A stretch of DNA of 9,421 nucleotides from a virus (lineage: Duplodnaviria; Heunggongvirae; Uroviricota; Caudoviricetes). Positions 1-9,023 of the stretch are shown in pieces. The stretch is from IMG/VR virus record IMGVR_UViG_2648501400_000007. The stretch is one strand, 5' to 3'. A program made the position numbers and the translations under genes. Within the stretch, counting starts at the first letter, position 1, and each line of letters starts with the position of its first letter. The notes below the pieces were generated by a model, which saw only the letters and a list, made by a program, of their open reading frames with translations, did not search any database and had not been told where the DNA came from.

Positions 1-504
1 CGGGTGAGTGTGGCTGACGGGCGCCTTGCCGGCTGCAAGGTCGTATGCAGCCTTGACCGCCTTCGGCGTGGCAGCCTCAGTTTCTGATTGACTGTCCGTG
101 GCGCTGCTCAGTTGTACGGTGCCTTTTGCCGTCAGCGAGGCAGCAGGCACTCCCGTTATCTGACTCCACGGGTGAGTGTGGCTGACGGGCGCCTTGCCGG
201 CTGCAAGGTCGTATGCAGCCTTGACCGCCTTCGGCGTGGCAGCCTCAGTTTCTGATTGACTGTCCGTGACGCTGCTCAGTTGTACGGTGCCTTTTGCCGT
301 CAGCGAGGCAGCAGGCACTCCCGTTATCTGACTCCACGGGTGAGTGTGGCTGACGGGCGCCTTGCCGGCAGCCAGGTCATATGCAGCCTTGACGGCCTTT
401 GGTGTGGCGGCCTGCGTTTCAGAGGTGCTGTTGGTGGCACTGCTCAGTTGGGTGAACCCCTTAGCTGTCAGTGTCGCGTCCGGGTGGTTACGGGAACGTA
501 CGTG
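1..504. repeat. 168-bp (56-codon) in-frame tandem repeat inside the tail fiber gene: units 1-168 and 169-336 differ at one base, third unit 337-504 is diverged after about 32 nt
   Basis: Direct comparison of the sequence: 'cgggtgagtgtggctgacgggcgccttgccgg...' begins at 1, 169 and 337. The period is a multiple of 3 and the frame stays open. The array may continue beyond the window start. Confidence 0.9.
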
Positions 505-2355: not shown

Positions 2356-2693
2356 AGCAGCTCCTGAGTCCGGGTCTGTCCGTCTGAGCCTTTCCAGCTC
2401 ACCCGGAGCGTAAGATGTTCGCCGTCGACGGCGGGTTTAACTGACATAAGCTGGCAGCGGGGCTCCCAGCGCCGGATGGCATCGACGGATTCGCGCACCA
2501 CATGCGGAATGGCCCGGTCTACAGGCCAGTCGATATAAAGATGCAGATTGCTGCCGAACTCCGGGCGATGCGGGTCGCTGCCGCGGGGAGTCCGCAGGAT
2601 AATTTGAATCGCCTGCCGGATATCATCCAGCCCCCGGACAATTTCGCCGGGAGCCTGCAGGGCTGGTTGCCAGAATACTGAGGTTGTTTTCAT
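2346..2693 (-). CDS. Baseplate wedge protein, gpW/gp25-like
   Basis: 115-aa ORF, ATG at 2693..2691. Contains ...IxQxIxIILRTPxGSxPxRPEFGSxL...WEPR...SV..., resembling the P2 gpW / T4 gp25 family as I recall it; same length as P2 gpW. Confidence 0.8.
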   Translation of the reverse strand: MKTTSVFWQPALQAPGEIVRGLDDIRQAIQIILRTPRGSDPHRPEFGSNLHLYIDWPVDRAIPHVVRESVDAIRRWEPRCQLMSVKPAVDGEHLTLRVSWKGSDGQTRTQELLWR

Positions 2694-2711
2694 GGGGGCA
2701 GTATTGCCCCC
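2694..2711 (-). promoter_or_regulatory. Perfect 7-bp-stem hairpin (GGGGGCA-gtat-TGCCCCC) immediately 5' of the W-like start codon, within the only sizeable intergenic gap (54 nt) in the operon
   Basis: Seen directly in sequence at 2694-2711. No U-tract follows on either strand, so it is not a canonical intrinsic terminator; it could sequester a GGGGG Shine-Dalgarno-like element. Confidence 0.3.
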
Positions 2712-2747
2712 GTGCGGGAACGCTGATATTAAAGGCGTTTAAAAAGC

Positions 2748-3344
2748 TCAGTGGGAGTGGTGGCTGGAGTTTTCGCCATCAGACAACATACTGCCCGTGG
2801 CATGGGCATTCCCTTTAATCTCGATATTGCCATGGATGGTCGCGGTAACACCTTCACCACCAGAACCCGCCATGCCTCCTTCGTAAATCAGCTTACCCCT
2901 GACACGCAGATCTCCGGTAAGTTCGGTTTCCGGTGCGTCAATCGTGGCTTTCTGTGTTTTCAATACCACATCAGCACCACACTCAATGACAATATGCTCA
3001 ATGCCGCCCCGGATGATCAGAGTGTGCGTCTTCCGGTTGTAGCTGTACTCTGCACCATCAGCAAACCGGGTTCCCCGGATATTTTTGTCACTGAACGGTG
3101 GTTTATCGACGTCTGAATACACCGCGCCCAGAATAACACCATCCTCGCCGTTGGCATCGAGCAGCACCTCAACCTGCTCCCCCACGTCAGGGAGCCAGTA
3201 ATCTTTGTTATCCTGGGTATTGCGCTGCAGCACGTTAAGCCAGTTTGTGCGCAGGTTATCGCATTCAGGCAGACGAACGCGGGCCTGAACCCTGTCGGCA
3301 TCAACGGCACTGACCGTACCGACCTGACGAGTGACACCAGTCAT
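2748..3344 (-). CDS. Baseplate central spike protein, gpV-like
   Basis: 198-aa ORF, ATG at 3344..3342 overlapping the D-like stop (ATGA), preceded by AAGGAG. N-terminal part has W.PDVGEQVEVL similar to P2 gpV; C-terminus ends ...SSHHSH. Located between the hub and W-like genes. Confidence 0.8.
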   Translation of the reverse strand: MTGVTRQVGTVSAVDADRVQARVRLPECDNLRTNWLNVLQRNTQDNKDYWLPDVGEQVEVLLDANGEDGVILGAVYSDVDKPPFSDKNIRGTRFADGAEYSYNRKTHTLIIRGGIEHIVIECGADVVLKTQKATIDAPETELTGDLRVRGKLIYEGGMAGSGGEGVTATIHGNIEIKGNAHATGSMLSDGENSSHHSH

Positions 3345-4495
3345 TTTTTCTTCTCCTTAATCACCGTCGATGTACTGCCATCCGGGTGATAAACCGTGAG
3401 TTTCTGAGTTTTTTGTTTTTTCCCTCTTGTGACTGGCCCCCGTGCCACTTCCAGCTCTGTGGTGTAGCCGCTGTTACGGTCAAACGCATGGCGGGCAGTG
3501 GTTATGAGCCATGGCCCGGATAACTGCCCAAAACTCACCAGTTCAATTTTGTTGCCTGCTGCCAGTTGAGGTGTTCCCGTCAGCGTCAGGGAGCCGTTCT
3601 GCTGGTATTCGTTATGTCTGGCCAGTGCTGAATCCGCTTTAATCCGGGCACTGTCCGGGTCGCTGACGCGGCTGTTAACTTTAAGTGAGTCAGCGCTGGT
3701 AACCTTACCACCTTTGAGCTTTTTGTCGCTTTCACGGGTACCACCATCAGCTTCGTAGACGATCAGTTTTTTACTGCTGCTTTTCTGGTGTTTTACCTTT
3801 GCAGATTTATAGACCCGGTTGATGGTGTCACGCAGGGAAAAGCGGGCCACATCCTGCGGTTTTAACTGCCTGACCGGCTCCTGACTGCGCAGTGTGGCCA
3901 GATGAGAAAAAATCAGCTGGTCACTGACCACTTTCACTGCATAACCATACTCGCTGGCCAGCCGGCGCAGAAAACCCACGTCGGTTTCAGCATACTGGGT
4001 CACCCGGTCGATTCTGATGGACTCAATGCTGCCCACCAGTTTCAGTCGGTGCTTTCTGGCAATCCGCCCCGCAACAGCTGCCAGCGTGGTGTTCTCAAAA
4101 CCACGACTGATTTTAGTCCGCAGGGCACTGTTAACCGAGGTGGCCACCCCACGGATAGAAACAACGGAAGCGGGCGAACTCACTTCGATCTCGTCTATAG
4201 AGAACGTACCGCAGGACAGCAGCTTCTCGCCCTGATAGCCCATTTTCAGCGTCAGCGTGTCACCCTTGCCCGGATACCACTTATCCAGCCAGCGGCCATC
4301 GGTGTCGTCCAGCTCCACCTCAATGGTATCGGACTCATTTTTGATGTTATCGCTCCAGGTCACACGGGTGACATAAGGCGCGATATCAGAGGTGATGTTT
4401 TTCTGCAGATACCACAGAGTGAACACCGGTGTCAGCACATCGCTGACGCCGGTTAACGCTGATGTGACTTGCGCAGTGCTGTTTATCTCAGCCAT
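3341..4495 (-). CDS. Baseplate hub protein, P2 gpD-like (phage late control D family)
   Basis: 384-aa ORF (P2 gpD is of similar size), ATG at 4495..4493 overlapping the X-like stop by 13 nt. Position after U/X and before the spike gene. Confidence 0.8.
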   Translation of the reverse strand: MAEINSTAQVTSALTGVSDVLTPVFTLWYLQKNITSDIAPYVTRVTWSDNIKNESDTIEVELDDTDGRWLDKWYPGKGDTLTLKMGYQGEKLLSCGTFSIDEIEVSSPASVVSIRGVATSVNSALRTKISRGFENTTLAAVAGRIARKHRLKLVGSIESIRIDRVTQYAETDVGFLRRLASEYGYAVKVVSDQLIFSHLATLRSQEPVRQLKPQDVARFSLRDTINRVYKSAKVKHQKSSSKKLIVYEADGGTRESDKKLKGGKVTSADSLKVNSRVSDPDSARIKADSALARHNEYQQNGSLTLTGTPQLAAGNKIELVSFGQLSGPWLITTARHAFDRNSGYTTELEVARGPVTRGKKQKTQKLTVYHPDGSTSTVIKEKKK

Positions 4496-4695
4496 GGGGC
4501 AATATCCTCTTCTGTACGGGCTTCTTCAGCCTCAATCACCGGGATCAGTAACAACAGCCCGGAGGGCAGCACCGGCGTGATGGCCACGTGCGGATTGGCG
4601 GCAATAATCCGGGGATAGCCCAGCGGGTCACCGTAGTACTGCCATGCCAGCGAATCCCAGCGCTCTCCGTCACGGGTAACATGTTCAAGAAACAT
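4483..4695 (-). CDS. Tail protein X-like (LysM-type)
   Basis: 70 aa from ATG 4695..4693 (the track's 4698 start is a GTG one codon upstream). The ATG overlaps the upstream stop as TGATG. Sequence ...WDSLAWQYYGDP...IIAANP...LPSGLLLLIP matches the pattern I recall for P2 gpX (...YYG...LAANP...LP.G...LP). Confidence 0.75.
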   Translation of the reverse strand: MFLEHVTRDGERWDSLAWQYYGDPLGYPRIIAANPHVAITPVLPSGLLLLIPVIEAEEARTEEDIAPWLR

Positions 4696-5579
4696 CACAC
4701 ACTCCTCGTCAGTATTCTGGCGGCCATTGCACTTAATCCCGGAGACATGCGGTTGAATGCTGTGCCGGCGGCGTTAAGCTGCCCGGAAACGGTATCCAGA
4801 GCACCTGCAATATTTCTTTTGTCCACACCACTCAGCGCAGACTGTGCCTGCTGTACATACGTGGCTGCTTCGCTGGCTGTTCTGGCCAGACTGATGGCAT
4901 CGGGCATGGATTCAGAGAGTGCGTTAAACGCCGGAACACTTTTCCCCAGAGCCCCGGAGATATTACCCAGTCCGCTCATCAGCCCCGGCACACGGGTCAG
5001 TGCGACAACGGGGTTATCCTTCATTTTCTGTGTCACCCGAACGGCGCTGATAGTGGTCTGGAGTACAGACTGCGCCTGTTTCGCATAGTTGACGCCGTTG
5101 CGGATGAACTGCGCCACCCCGGAAGGTGAAGGAATGGCACCGGAGACCGCCCCGACACCCGGGAGCTTCGTGCGTATTGCCGGTGGTTGCAGAGGATTTT
5201 TCGGATCACCGGTGTATTCCCGGAGAGACACGGTGGCACTGACAGCCAGCACGTTACCGGTGCTGTCTGTCTGCTCGCTGGTTGCGGTCACATCGGTAAT
5301 CACGAACCAGCCACGATAGTCACCGTTGCCGAAGACCAGCGCCAGTGCCTGATGGGCTTTCATGGTTGTTCGCAGTCTCGCCAGCTCCACATCGGGTACA
5401 CAATAATGCTGATGGAAGACCAGACTGATCTGGATTTCGTCCAGCCTGTCGCCGACGAACTGCAGGCCAGGCTTACCCCCGATGCGGGCATGCTCCGCAT
5501 AATCGACGCCGAACGTGGCCTCGAAGCCGTCCCAGTAGGTAATCAGCTCAAACTCAATATCACCCAGTACGGCAAACAT
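4695..5579 (-). CDS. gpU-like tail protein (tail terminator / DNA-circulation-N-like N-terminal domain) with a long Ala/Ser/Gly-rich C-terminal extension
   Basis: 294-aa ORF, ATG at 5579..5577 overlapping the tape measure stop (TGATG). N-terminus MFAVLGDIEFELIT... resembles the gpU-family N-terminus as I recall it; position immediately after the tape measure gene. The family assignment is less certain than for neighbouring genes. Confidence 0.55.
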   Translation of the reverse strand: MFAVLGDIEFELITYWDGFEATFGVDYAEHARIGGKPGLQFVGDRLDEIQISLVFHQHYCVPDVELARLRTTMKAHQALALVFGNGDYRGWFVITDVTATSEQTDSTGNVLAVSATVSLREYTGDPKNPLQPPAIRTKLPGVGAVSGAIPSPSGVAQFIRNGVNYAKQAQSVLQTTISAVRVTQKMKDNPVVALTRVPGLMSGLGNISGALGKSVPAFNALSESMPDAISLARTASEAATYVQQAQSALSGVDKRNIAGALDTVSGQLNAAGTAFNRMSPGLSAMAARILTRSV

Positions 5580-8530
5580 CAGCGGTACTCCTTACGTTGT
5601 TTCTGAGCCAGCAGACGCTCCAGCATTTTTTCCAGCTCATGCAGACTCATATTCAGGGCACCAGTCAGTCCTGCAGGCGCTGTGGTTTCTCTGCCATTGA
5701 GGAAAAACTGAGGATTAAAGCTGACCTGGATACCACCAGACGTTCCACCGCCGGTTGCAACTGCACCACGGCCTGAATATCCGGCAGCCAGGATTTCAGG
5801 CGAGGGGATACGGGGAACATCCGGTGTCATCTCATTTGCCAGACGTTGCCCTGGTAAAATCGATGCCCGGGTGGAGAGCGGGATAGCGGGCATGGAAGAC
5901 AAACTATTGATTACGGCTCCGATCGCATTTTTAGCAGACGACATAAACCCGTTGATATCGGGCAACGGCATACTGAAGCGAACACCTGAAGTGTTATCCC
6001 GTATTTCTGGCCCCTGAATGCTCACGGGCATTCTGGGGAGCAGTTCACTGGCCATTCGCTGCCCGGCCAGAGCTGCAAGCGGAGTGGTCCGCTGCAGGCC
6101 AATGGCGGCCCCCTGCGCGATATTGTCACCAAAGCCCATAAACACGCGGCTCGGCGAATGAATACCCAGCTTTTCACTGAACCAGCCACTGATGCTGTCA
6201 CCCATTCCGGTTACACTGGATTTGAGCGACTCCCATTTGTTTTTGATACCGTTAATCAGACCGTCGACAAGATGGCCACCGAAGTCGGTGAACTTTGCCG
6301 GCAGATCAACACCAAGATATTTCAGCGCAGCTGCAAAGGCTTTATAGAGCAGACCTGCCGGCGACCAGTTAATCAGCAGCTTACCAGTTCCCGCGATACC
6401 GCCGTTAAAGGCTTCCTGAATGTCAGCCCAGCACTGTTTAAACCAGCTACTGATGCTGTCACCCATTCCGGTTACACTGGATTTGAGCGACCCCCATTTG
6501 TTTTTGATACCGTTAATCAGACCGTCGATAAGATGGCCACCGAAGTCGGTGAACTTTGCCGGCAGAGCAACGCCGAAATATTTCAGCGCAGCCGCAAAGG
6601 CTTTATAGAGCAGGCCTGCCGGCGACCAGTTAATCAGTAACTTACCAATTCCCACAATGCCGCCGTTAAAGGCTTCCTGAATGTCTGCCCAGCGCTGTTT
6701 AAACCAGCCACTGACTGCCCCCCAGTTGCGGTAGATAAGGTAAGCTGCTGCCGCGACAGCGGTGATAACGAGACCGATGGGATTCATCATCAGCGCACGT
6801 CCAATCCAGAGAACAGCACGTCCGGCGAGCATAATTCCGCGAACCAGCCCCCCGGAGAGCACGCCACTCAGTGTTCTGGCTCCTCTGGCGACGGCGCTAA
6901 ATCCGGTCACCAGCCAGCGGAGCTTACCGCCTTGCCCCAGTGCGAGCGACAGACGAAGCCAGTTGGCCCGAAGTAAAACAGCATTTTTCCAGACACTTAC
7001 AAAGGGGGAAATAAGGAGATTCAGCCCCAGTTTGAGACCAACAGTCGCTATCTTAATCGCAAGGAGCGCACTGATGAGCTTAAAAGCCCCACTGACAAAT
7101 TGCGGGTGAGTCGCTACCCAGTGTTTTGCCCCCTGAATGAGTGGAAGCAGTTCCTGAGTCAAAGAAATAAAAGATGGAGCTAATTGATCGCCCAGCGTAA
7201 TTGCCAGATCGCGACTGCTGACCATAAGTGTTTTAGTGGCTTCAAGGGGAGATTTCAGCCGCTGATCATAAGCACTGGCAAGCAAATCGTTATCCGCAGC
7301 CCTGAGAGCACCGGCACGGATCTCTCGATATCTGTCCATGTTGGCCAGCATCGGGCGGATAAATGCCATGACCTGCATATCCGCGAACATATCGCCCAGA
7401 CCAAAGTTTTTCGCCAGAGCCTGAAGTGCCTCATCTCTTGCCGTATCATTCTTTATTTTCATGGCTGATTTGAAGCCGGCCAGCGCTTCGGGGCTTTTGG
7501 CATTGAGGTAACGTTCTATAACACTCAACATCCCTTCAATCGGAGAGATCCCCGCAGCTTTATAACTCGCAATAGATCCCTGCAAATCAATACCCAGATC
7601 AGCAAACTGTTTCTGAGTATCGCGGGCAAAAATTTTGGTAAGAAAGTTTTTAAAATTATTGGCTGCTTCGTCGGTGGAACCTGCACCGATTTTTGCTATC
7701 TGGAGACTGGCCCCGATTTCAGCAACAACCTCTTTTCCACTGGCAATACCCGCCATCATTGGGGCCAGGGACTGCATCCACTTGACCTGATCCGGGATTT
7801 CAAATGACCCCTGGTCACCGGCATAAGCCATAATATTCTGAACGGCACCAAAATCTCTGGCCGCACCTTTCAGGGAGTTTTGCCAGACTGCGGCCACTTT
7901 TGCCCAGTCCTGAGCAGACGTGCGTGTTGCCGTTGCCGCGCGGGCAATATCCGGCATCAGAAAACCGATATCTGACACATTATCAATATTGTCGCTGATG
8001 AGTGAACCCACCGCCTCCTGCAGCTCATCCTGATACTGATTGTATTTAAGCGCCCAGCCTTTTATCTGTCCGGCAAGTCCATCCCGCGTTTTATTGTCAT
8101 ATTTTGCGGTGATCGACATATCAATCATTTTGTCCTGAAAAGACATGGACTGCTGAACGGCAGGGGAAACCGTATGATAAACAGTCTGTGCCATGCCATA
8201 CGCTTCAATCCCCTGACCATACAGCGCCATGCGGTTAGCTTTCAGCGCATCACTGGTAGCGGATGCCGCTGACAGACGGCGCTGCTGGCGCTCAATTTGC
8301 TCCATGGTGCGGCTTACCCGCAGCAGCTCGCTGTTGAGATGCTGCATCCGGGAAGAACCCAGTTGACCATAACGTTCTGTTGCACGGGTTAAAGCGTTCT
8401 GACGTTCCTGCAGGCGGCGTGAGGTATCGCTCAGGGAATCAAGCGCACGGCGGGTACCGCTCATTGCAGAACGGAATGTGCTGCCAATCATCCCGCCGAT
8501 AACAACGCCGACTGAAAACTGTCCCGACAT
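5579..8530 (-). CDS. Tail tape measure protein
   Basis: 983-aa ORF, ATG at 8530..8528 preceded by GGAGG. Has a coiled-coil-like N-terminal region, a hydrophobic/glycine-rich central region, and an internal tandem repeat; located directly downstream of the chaperone E/E' pair. Size and composition are typical of myovirus tape measure proteins. Confidence 0.9.
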   Translation of the reverse strand: MSGQFSVGVVIGGMIGSTFRSAMSGTRRALDSLSDTSRRLQERQNALTRATERYGQLGSSRMQHLNSELLRVSRTMEQIERQQRRLSAASATSDALKANRMALYGQGIEAYGMAQTVYHTVSPAVQQSMSFQDKMIDMSITAKYDNKTRDGLAGQIKGWALKYNQYQDELQEAVGSLISDNIDNVSDIGFLMPDIARAATATRTSAQDWAKVAAVWQNSLKGAARDFGAVQNIMAYAGDQGSFEIPDQVKWMQSLAPMMAGIASGKEVVAEIGASLQIAKIGAGSTDEAANNFKNFLTKIFARDTQKQFADLGIDLQGSIASYKAAGISPIEGMLSVIERYLNAKSPEALAGFKSAMKIKNDTARDEALQALAKNFGLGDMFADMQVMAFIRPMLANMDRYREIRAGALRAADNDLLASAYDQRLKSPLEATKTLMVSSRDLAITLGDQLAPSFISLTQELLPLIQGAKHWVATHPQFVSGAFKLISALLAIKIATVGLKLGLNLLISPFVSVWKNAVLLRANWLRLSLALGQGGKLRWLVTGFSAVARGARTLSGVLSGGLVRGIMLAGRAVLWIGRALMMNPIGLVITAVAAAAYLIYRNWGAVSGWFKQRWADIQEAFNGGIVGIGKLLINWSPAGLLYKAFAAALKYFGVALPAKFTDFGGHLIDGLINGIKNKWGSLKSSVTGMGDSISSWFKQCWADIQEAFNGGIAGTGKLLINWSPAGLLYKAFAAALKYLGVDLPAKFTDFGGHLVDGLINGIKNKWESLKSSVTGMGDSISGWFSEKLGIHSPSRVFMGFGDNIAQGAAIGLQRTTPLAALAGQRMASELLPRMPVSIQGPEIRDNTSGVRFSMPLPDINGFMSSAKNAIGAVINSLSSMPAIPLSTRASILPGQRLANEMTPDVPRIPSPEILAAGYSGRGAVATGGGTSGGIQVSFNPQFFLNGRETTAPAGLTGALNMSLHELEKMLERLLAQKQRKEYR
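6181..6717. repeat. 261-bp (87-codon) in-frame tandem duplication inside the tape measure gene: two full units (6181-6441, 6442-6702), roughly 90% identical by eye, plus the first ~15 nt of a third
   Basis: Direct sequence comparison: 'accagc(c/t)actgatgctgtcacccattccggttacactggatttgagcgac...' recurs with period 261. At protein level the block WFKQ(R/C)WADIQEAFNGGI...GMGDSIS is duplicated. Confidence 0.9.
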
Positions 8531-8605: not shown

Positions 8606-9023
8606 CTATGATTTGTCGCCGTACTCGCTTTTTATTTGCTCTTCAGCCTGCTCCAGCCACATCTCCAGATCGTCAGTATCGAGGGCATCAATCTCCCCCG
8701 GCTGAAACCGGAACCATCTCGCCAGCAGCCCCTGCGCCTGCGTCAGCGCCCTGGTTGCTCTCACCCATCCCCGTGATGAGCTGAAATCGTTTCTGTAACT
8801 GCAGGTAATCAGCCAGATCCATATTGTCGAGATCTTCCGGGAGAAGACCAGTACTGCGGGCAATCAGCGGTTCGTCCCAGTCTGCCGGGTTTTTGCTGAT
8901 TTTGCGCACCTGCTTCAGGTCTTTTACCGTCAGGCGTTTCAGTTCAACCAGCTCAATTCTGGTGCCTGCAGCAGTGGTGAAGGGATAAGACAATTTAAAA
9001 GTATCGGATGGGGTCTGTGACAT
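8606..9023 (-). CDS. Predicted frameshift fusion product of the chaperone (E+E'-like); the E' frame is +1 (equivalently -2) relative to E and is open from 8863 to the stop at 8608..8606
   Basis: Second ORF (track 8606..8863, TTG-initiated, no Shine-Dalgarno) overlaps the last 176 nt of E in another frame and ends 75 nt before the tape measure start. My codon-by-codon comparison shows E' codons begin 1 nt 3' of E codons. Candidate shift site is the G-run in GCC-GGG-GGA (minus strand 8702..8694), three codons before the E stop. Confidence 0.5.
8688..9023 (-). CDS. Tail assembly chaperone (P2 gpE / lambda gpG analogue)
   Basis: 111-aa ORF, ATG at 9023..9021 preceded by AGGAG. Small acidic protein immediately upstream of the tape measure gene with an overlapping second frame, the conserved arrangement of tail chaperone pairs. 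Confidence 0.75.
   Translation of the reverse strand: MSQTPSDTFKLSYPFTTAAGTRIELVELKRLTVKDLKQVRKISKNPADWDEPLIARSTGLLPEDLDNMDLADYLQLQKRFQLITGMGESNQGADAGAGAAGEMVPVSAGGD

Follow-up and report, generated by a model that had tools for sequence, protein, structure and literature searches.

The gene for the tape measure protein (TMP) in IMG/VR virus record IMGVR_UViG_2648501400_000007, a 9,421-nucleotide stretch of tailed-phage DNA which was analysed at its full length and is referred to here as the window, contains two long and nearly identical direct repeats. The question raised by this locus is whether such a duplication is a fixed property of the protein, an error of assembly or one state of a module whose copy number varies, and, in the latter case, whether the variation is translated into the length of the tail. 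As shown below, we consider it likely that the window carries the two-unit allele of a copy-number-variable, in-frame module of 87 residues, which would act as part of the ruler in an extended TMP.

The array was located by Tandem Repeats Finder at positions 6180-6714, with a period of 261 nucleotides (nt), 2.0 copies, 93% matches, no indels and a score of 951, and a direct-repeat search delimited the copies 6180-6440 and 6441-6701 (93% identity). The only long open reading frame (ORF) over the array is the TMP gene (5579..8530, minus strand, 983 amino acids (aa)), and since the period of 261 nt equals 3 x 87 and is thus a multiple of three, the repeat is in frame. Unit 1 occupies positions 6446..6706 (residues 609-695, WFKQRWADIQ...GDSISS) and unit 2 positions 6185..6445 (residues 696-782, WFKQCWADIQ...GDSISG), both on the minus strand; together they cover 6185-6706 of the window and residues 609-782 of the TMP. 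The layout is that of a head-to-tail, in-frame direct repeat, the units being aligned with no indels and the ORFs remaining intact with one to four units. The original prediction, in which the strand was left unstated, had described two in-frame 261-bp units at about residues 605-784. Both the frame and the position proved to be correct, the Tandem Repeats Finder span corresponding to residues 606-784, but the identity of "roughly 90%" was an underestimate, as 244 of the 261 positions are the same and 17 differ (93.5% identity). The similarity of the two units is far beyond chance. Seven codons are changed synonymously and eight non-synonymously between them, with 8 of the 87 residues differing, and the longest identical tract measures 43 nt.

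Every unit boundary carries the sequence TCAGT[G/A]GC followed, across the boundary, by TGGTT, which codes for S-G/S-W-F. In comparing the boundary sequences, TCAGTGGC followed by TGGTT was found at the upstream boundary (6702..6714) and, as the same 13 nt in the same register, at the downstream boundary (6180..6192), and TCAGTAGC followed by TGGTT at the internal one (6441-6453), all on the minus strand. The downstream copy had earlier been read as the beginning of a third unit. This part of the description had to be abandoned, because only the 13-nt boundary sequence is shared there and the likeness to the unit stops about 5 nt inside the downstream flank.

A search of 5,426 complete Escherichia coli genomes revealed matches to the whole TMP gene in 636 and to the repeat region in 634 of them, and the element is therefore a common E. 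coli prophage (about 634 of 5,426 complete genomes). The best complete-genome match to the TMP gene of the window extends in one piece over 2952 nt with 99.9% identity, which means that the two-unit structure is reproduced by independent finished assemblies; the same 2952-nt span is labelled 'phage tail tape measure protein' in complete E. coli genomes. Copy numbers were read from the spans of the records in evenly spaced samples, coverage counts having joined offset pieces so that they could not discriminate. The spans in the evenly spaced sample differed by exactly 261 nt. Among 60 evenly spaced genomes of the 634 with a matching repeat region, 39 were two-unit, 14 three-unit, five one-unit and one four-unit, and one match was partial, and the corresponding whole-gene sample comprised 40 two-unit, 11 three-unit and seven one-unit genomes together with two partial matches. 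In addition, about 59 genomes contain the three-unit region as one uninterrupted match of at least 99.4% identity, and the one-unit allele of the L002 type (see below) is present in 13. All these counts refer to genomes, many of which are clonal (e.g. ST131), and not to independent events.

Representative loci were fetched and translated (they are designated by L numbers, L001 being Escherichia phage PhiKM). One unit is present in TMPs of 896 aa (L002, L008, L009) and, together with the absence of a 71-aa block located further downstream, in TMPs of 821 or 825 aa (L005, L006, L007), two units in the 983-aa protein of the window, three in TMPs of 1070 aa (L003, L004, L010, L011) and four in the 1157-aa TMP of strain LR-31 (L012). 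The ORF is intact in all ten complete-genome E. coli alleles examined and in phage KP12. The absence of a four-unit allele, which had been concluded from the lack of a 1157-aa protein at the top of a protein search, was overturned by the spread sample in which LR-31 was found; for alleles of five or more units, the sampling does not establish absence. Hence the expectation that the duplication may be variable between related elements was confirmed by the counting of units in TMP homologues, which are not uniformly two-unit and among which one to four units segregate.

In the case of a repeat of this kind, the suspicion that the two-unit structure is an artefact of short-read assembly, generated by collapse or expansion, naturally arises, and the original prediction was right to point to this risk. 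Repeats of 261 nt with 93% identity are hard for short reads, and the record of PhiKM (PQ738613) breaks exactly at the repeat: positions 7915-8014 are a 100-N scaffold gap in the TMP repeat, each of the adjoining contig ends falls within a unit, the contig after the gap opens with sequence overlapping the previous contig, and the TMP is annotated as two coding sequences, 'disrupted by sequencing gap'. As the gap lies within the repeat, the copy number of PhiKM is not readable from its record. For the window itself, however, an artefact is very improbable, given that a complete genome contains this two-unit gene uninterrupted, that two units are present in approximately 65% of the 60-genome sample, that 17 fixed differences between the units are not what a duplicated pile of reads would contain, and that the unit-1/unit-2 pattern is kept across diverged backbones.

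Annotation is affected as well. In E. coli A1.S1.65 (L003, positions 2501-5713 of the locus) an intact three-unit ORF of 3213 nt with no internal stop was annotated by PGAP as two 'incomplete' pseudogene pieces, and the three-unit ORF of equal length (1070 aa) in L004 was annotated as one gene; the repeat thus appears to confuse annotation based on protein alignment. 'Partial' database proteins were also considered as possible contig breaks at the repeat, but those retrieved are truncated at the N-terminus and not in the repeat. From a practical point of view, the repeat breaks short-read assemblies, as in PhiKM, and misleads automatic annotation, and the TMP lengths deduced from draft assemblies of this E. 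coli prophage are unreliable.

The variant alleles also retain traces of how the copy number changed. The flanks compared with the window comprise 1824 nt upstream and 606 nt downstream; L002 has 2 upstream and 7 downstream differences, L003 and L004 each have 7 upstream and 10 downstream, and across the variant alleles the flanks are at least 98.3% identical. Set against the 6.5% divergence of the units, such near-identical flanks indicate that the copy-number changes are much younger than the split of unit 1 and unit 2. The junctions were read at the 17 diagnostic sites that separate unit 1 from unit 2, expressed as columns of the 261-nt unit. In L002, the single unit follows unit 1 as far as column 92 and unit 2 from column 113 onwards (switch in columns 93-112), and the switch from unit 1 to unit 2 falls between columns 214 and 258 (columns 215-257) in the single unit of L008 and between columns 12 and 20 (columns 13-19) in that of L009. 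The middle unit of L003 and L004 is unit-2-like to column 58 and unit-1-like from column 66 (switch in columns 59-65), the middle unit of L010 and L011 is a copy of unit 1 with 1 nt different, and the four-unit L012 is a mosaic. The finished genomes therefore record contraction at no fewer than three distinct junctions and expansion at two. Many further chimeric signatures are present among database proteins of 896, 983 and 1070 aa; these were down-weighted, since collapsed draft assemblies can mimic contractions, and the claim of recurrence rests on the complete genomes.

Chimeric units with differing switch points on near-identical flanks point to repeated homologous exchange between units out of register, and it is by this process that the copy number, judging from the junctions, has repeatedly changed. 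The exchange could have proceeded by unequal crossing-over, between sister or co-resident copies, or by replication slippage, routes which the sequence does not separate. E. coli strain R3 (NZ_CP107184.1) harbours a two-unit prophage near 3.25 Mb and a three-unit prophage near 4.29 Mb, and several genomes contain up to 9-12 matching places; co-resident prophage copies could exchange units. Even alleles with no more than about 94-98% identity in the repeat region preserve the distinction between unit 1 and unit 2, and this, together with the 17 nucleotide differences, bears out the earlier view that the duplication is not a brand-new event. Unequal recombination, which had been put forward as its origin, is supported for the changes in copy number by the chimeric one- and three-unit alleles with their identifiable junctions, but for the first duplication it is only inferred. 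In the single-unit alleles of this lineage, 13 nt at one end of the unit are repeated in register at the other end, a match that measures 6-8 nt in the remoter loci L005-L007; this suggests that the first duplication may have arisen by microhomology at the unit boundaries. According to the proposed mechanism, the short sequence shared by the boundaries (13 nt here, 6-8 nt in single-unit relatives) would have been used for the first duplication, after which the copy number would shift by exchange between misaligned units, identical tracts of up to 43 nt being available.

When one unit was compared with 1.84 billion representative proteins, 755 clusters were matched at E <= 0.001, and among the 97 of the best 150 clusters with a length of at least 700 aa, 74 contain a single full unit and 21 contain two, with one cluster each for three and four. 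Among distant TMPs the commonest period is 76 aa; periods of 87 and about 114 aa occur too, as do half-unit periods of 42-50 aa. In only 4 of the 23 multi-unit distant TMPs are the protein's own units more alike than the units of other proteins, and most of the distant duplications are consequently old. These old two-unit layouts, commonly with the 76-aa period, are what could be expected if two units were an ancient and fixed feature of this TMP family, not subject to variation. For the lineage of the window this has hardly any probability left, because one to four units occur here on flanks at least 98.3% identical, with several independent junctions, and the units of one expansion (L010/L011) are a single nucleotide apart.

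The same part of the protein has been altered in other ways as well. P0018, an E. coli TMP of 1084 aa, contains a different tandem duplication of 101 aa (residues about 546-649) in another register, which takes in the last part of the hydrophobic region together with the opening ~23 residues of unit 1; it is found on a single 22.8-kb contig and is either real or a misassembly. Evidently, the region from the hydrophobic segments to the GIHSPSRVF motif has been duplicated repeatedly and in several registers in this TMP family, and the protein tolerates it. A second length variant is represented by the 71-aa block mentioned above (window about 5852-6064, residues about 823-893), which is present in the window and in the alleles of 896-1157 aa and is missing from those of 821/825 aa (L005, L006 and Klebsiella phage KP12). 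The block has a similar motif, GQR[ML]A.E..P..P....PEI, at each of its borders, and its region is predicted to be non-helical in a low-confidence AlphaFold model.

As to the consequences for the virion, the TMP would run inside the tail tube as an extended, largely helical protein and would stop the polymerisation of tube and sheath. With about 0.15 nm per residue, each unit of 87 aa would make the tail longer by about 13 nm, or roughly three tube/sheath rings, the latter estimate being based on a ring rise of 3.8-4.1 nm assumed from other contractile tails. The copy number thus probably changes the tail length in steps of ~13 nm, and the lengths computed at 0.15 nm per residue for one to four units are about 134, 147, 160 and 174 nm. 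A basis for this expectation is provided by phage TP901-1, in which the tail becomes shorter in proportion to the size of deletions made in the TMP repeat region and in the hydrophobic region next to it, in agreement with Katsura's 0.15 nm per residue, and an engineered TMP duplication lengthened the tail (PMC5099701). In a recent survey, T4 gp29 is cited as the contractile-tail precedent of the ruler rule (PMC13585406).

It is, however, conceivable that the polymorphism, although genuine, leaves tail length unaltered or has an effect that is not under selection. This would be the case if the module folds back or belongs outside the measuring part of the protein (e.g. acting in the cell envelope after ejection), or if neutral variation builds up among alleles of prophages that seldom or never undergo induction. 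The unit is located between hydrophobic, membrane-like segments, which it directly follows, and the conserved GIHSPSRVF motif of the C-terminus, a region linked to genome delivery as well as to length (PMC5099701), and the AlphaFold model is uninformative in this respect. In addition, L002 has damaged neighbouring genes: at positions 628-1343 of this locus (E. coli MLI121) the small gene upstream of the chaperone is annotated as frameshifted and the chaperone as containing an internal stop, and this prophage may be decaying. On the other hand, deletion of the hydrophobic region beside the repeats of TP901-1 also shortened the tail (107.6 versus 118 nm; PMC5099701), the ORF is intact in the ten complete-genome alleles and in KP12, the neighbours of the four-unit locus carry no pseudogene flags, and PhiKM entered the databases as a phage whose host is a uropathogenic E. 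coli, its genome being partial. On balance, the lack of an effect is regarded as unlikely.

A much bolder proposal would be that a common E. coli prophage lineage keeps a selected four-state polymorphism of tail length (the four values given above), recurrently generated by the 261-nt repeat. Selection could, for example, match the tail to the depth of the host surface layers (O-antigen, capsule), and co-resident prophages of differing copy number could serve as recombination partners. We regard this proposal as quite doubtful, and should it be true, the locus would constitute a simple natural genetic system for relating the tail length of a contractile-tailed phage to its fitness.

Several points weigh against the interpretation of the window as the two-unit state of a variable ruler module. 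The tail lengths of all the alleles are predicted values, and the rule of 0.15 nm per residue can miss by about 10% or more, as in the case of phage Cyrano, for which 230 nm was predicted and 259 nm measured (PMC9928086). The helicity of the units is weakly indicated by the single-sequence AlphaFold model of the whole TMP, which is nearly all helix to about residue 810, both units included, but is of low confidence (mean pLDDT 41). One-unit chimeric proteins from draft assemblies could be collapse artefacts. The single-unit outgroups L005-L007 show mixed unit-1 and unit-2 states at the diagnostic sites, and it is mainly on account of the near-identical flanks that the L002-type one-unit alleles are taken as probable contractions and not as ancestral survivors. 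Some carriers may be defective, as the damaged neighbours in L002 suggest, and not every allele is necessarily expressed in a virion. Finally, no publication on this phage lineage (PhiKM or the tails of E. coli bcepmuviruses) was found in a literature search of incomplete coverage.

The assignment of the gene as a tape measure gene, on which the interpretation of a variable ruler module depends, agrees with the original prediction. The protein matches Pfam PF10145 PhageMin_Tail (E 1.6e-20, 74.3 bits, cut-off 33.2), TIGR01760 tape_meas_TP901 (E 2.1e-15, 56.6 bits, cut-off 28.8) and PHROG 28 'tail length tape measure protein' (E 1.2e-133), and its gene is situated where a TMP gene is expected, after the chaperone pair and before the baseplate hub genes. 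The single Pfam hit of the whole TMP, the form in which Pfam was scanned, covers residues 159-340 (PF10145) and lies outside the units. The isolated unit matched no family in NCBIfam, and TMP PHROGs were its sole matches in PHROG.

All the neighbouring genes mentioned here are on the minus strand. Directly upstream of the TMP gene is that of a gpE-like tail assembly chaperone (8688..9023; PF10109 Phage_TAC_7, E 5.5e-21), overlapped by an ORF at 8606-8863, the counterpart of a frameshift product that bears the name 'GpE family' in relatives (according to the annotation of L004). A gpU-like tail protein gene (4695..5579) follows directly downstream, and it is succeeded by gpX (4483-4698), gpD (3341-4495), spike (2748-3344), gp25 (2346-2693), J (1252-2355) and I (681-1271), all recognised by Pfam, with a tail-fibre gene after I in the same gene run. 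A matching gene order, with sheath and tube genes upstream, is found in L001-L004. Judged by gene content and order, the genes of the window are those of a contractile-tail module of the P2/BcepMu type. The closest deposited phage is Escherichia phage PhiKM (96.5% nucleotide identity), classified as Bcepmuvirus, and the carrier is a BcepMu-like E. coli prophage with a Mu-type head and a P2-type contractile tail.

The window contains yet another array, located in the N-terminal part of the tail-fibre gene, which starts at position 678 and runs off the left end of the window. It occupies positions 1-504 (minus strand) and consists of at least three in-frame copies of 168 nt (56 aa), of which the first two share 99% identity, as against 69% for the third. 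This repeat belongs to the Pfam family 'Phage tail fibre repeat' PF03406 (three hits, E 3.4e-56). The tail-fibre repeat of PhiKM comprises 2.5 copies at 84%, and this array may also vary between relatives.

The TMP module provides a natural series of alleles in which one to four units occur on backgrounds that hardly differ, and the strains that carry them are named and have public sequences. Carriers with complete genomes include F1140 and TUM14759 (one unit), S21EC (two units), 10034292-3 and SCU-105 (three units) and LR-31 (four units). To our knowledge, few direct tests of the ruler rule exist for P2/Mu-type contractile tails; the series allows such a test, as well as a comparison of tail length with host range and efficiency. 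No publication on this polymorphism was found in the literature covered, which is incomplete, and a paper on the prophages of LF82 yielded no measured member of this phage family.

Among the known systems, the closest in behaviour are the tandem repeats of 11 or 18 residues in the TMPs of siphophages such as TP901-1 and staphylococcal phages (Belcaid et al. 2011, PMC3271669; Mahony et al. 2016, PMC5099701). Like these, the repeat described here is in frame and varies in number between related phages, a property proposed to ease duplication, deletion and change of tail length, and removal of the siphophage repeats shortens the tail proportionally. The siphophage units, however, are only 11 or 18 aa long, marked by aromatic residues, often barely similar to one another and found in non-contractile tails, whereas here a unit of 87 aa (261 nt) with 93-99.6% DNA identity occurs in one to four copies in a contractile-tail prophage. 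According to a 2026 survey, myovirus-type TMPs are typically without tandem repeats (PMC13585406). The pattern of Belcaid et al. requires [FW] markers every 11 (or 11-11-18) residues and at least seven repeats (PMC3271669); by eye, no 11-residue spacing is obvious among the aromatic residues of the unit (positions 0, 1, 5, 12, 26, 33, 36, 42, 43, 51, 54 and 70), the pattern itself not having been scanned, and the 87-residue repeat is not filed under this family. Variable TMP repeats with a suggested role in tail length are thus known from siphophages, and the present case differs from these in the 87-aa unit, the near-identity of its DNA, the natural four-state polymorphism within one prophage lineage and the contractile tail.

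A second comparison is offered by lambda gpH and T4 gp29, in which segments were deleted or duplicated in frame by engineering (Katsura and Hendrix 1984; Abuladze et al. 1994, cited through PMC13585406 and PMC5099701). These too are internal in-frame changes of length, accompanied by the expected proportional change of the tail (about 0.15 nm per residue), and with T4 the rule extends to a contractile tail, but they are laboratory constructs with measured tails, whereas the alleles reported here are natural, reside in E. coli genomes and have predicted tail lengths. The remoter cultured relatives, BcepMu and phiE255, encode homologous TMPs (gp44 and gp18, respectively; 31-33% protein identity over residues 1-697), the tblastn similarity stopping near residue 697, inside the repeat region, and the tail-gene order of the window matches that of PhiKM, the Bcepmuvirus.

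Finally, bacterial coding variable number tandem repeats (VNTRs) are arranged head-to-tail, have a unit that is a multiple of three and a copy number varying among close relatives, and acquire chimeric units by out-of-register exchange. The TMP module shares with them the layout, the variable number and the chimeric units, and differs from the typical coding VNTRs in its long unit, its low copy number (1-4) and its product. Since the product is a molecular ruler, the copy number of this repeat would be expected to map onto a physical dimension of the virion.

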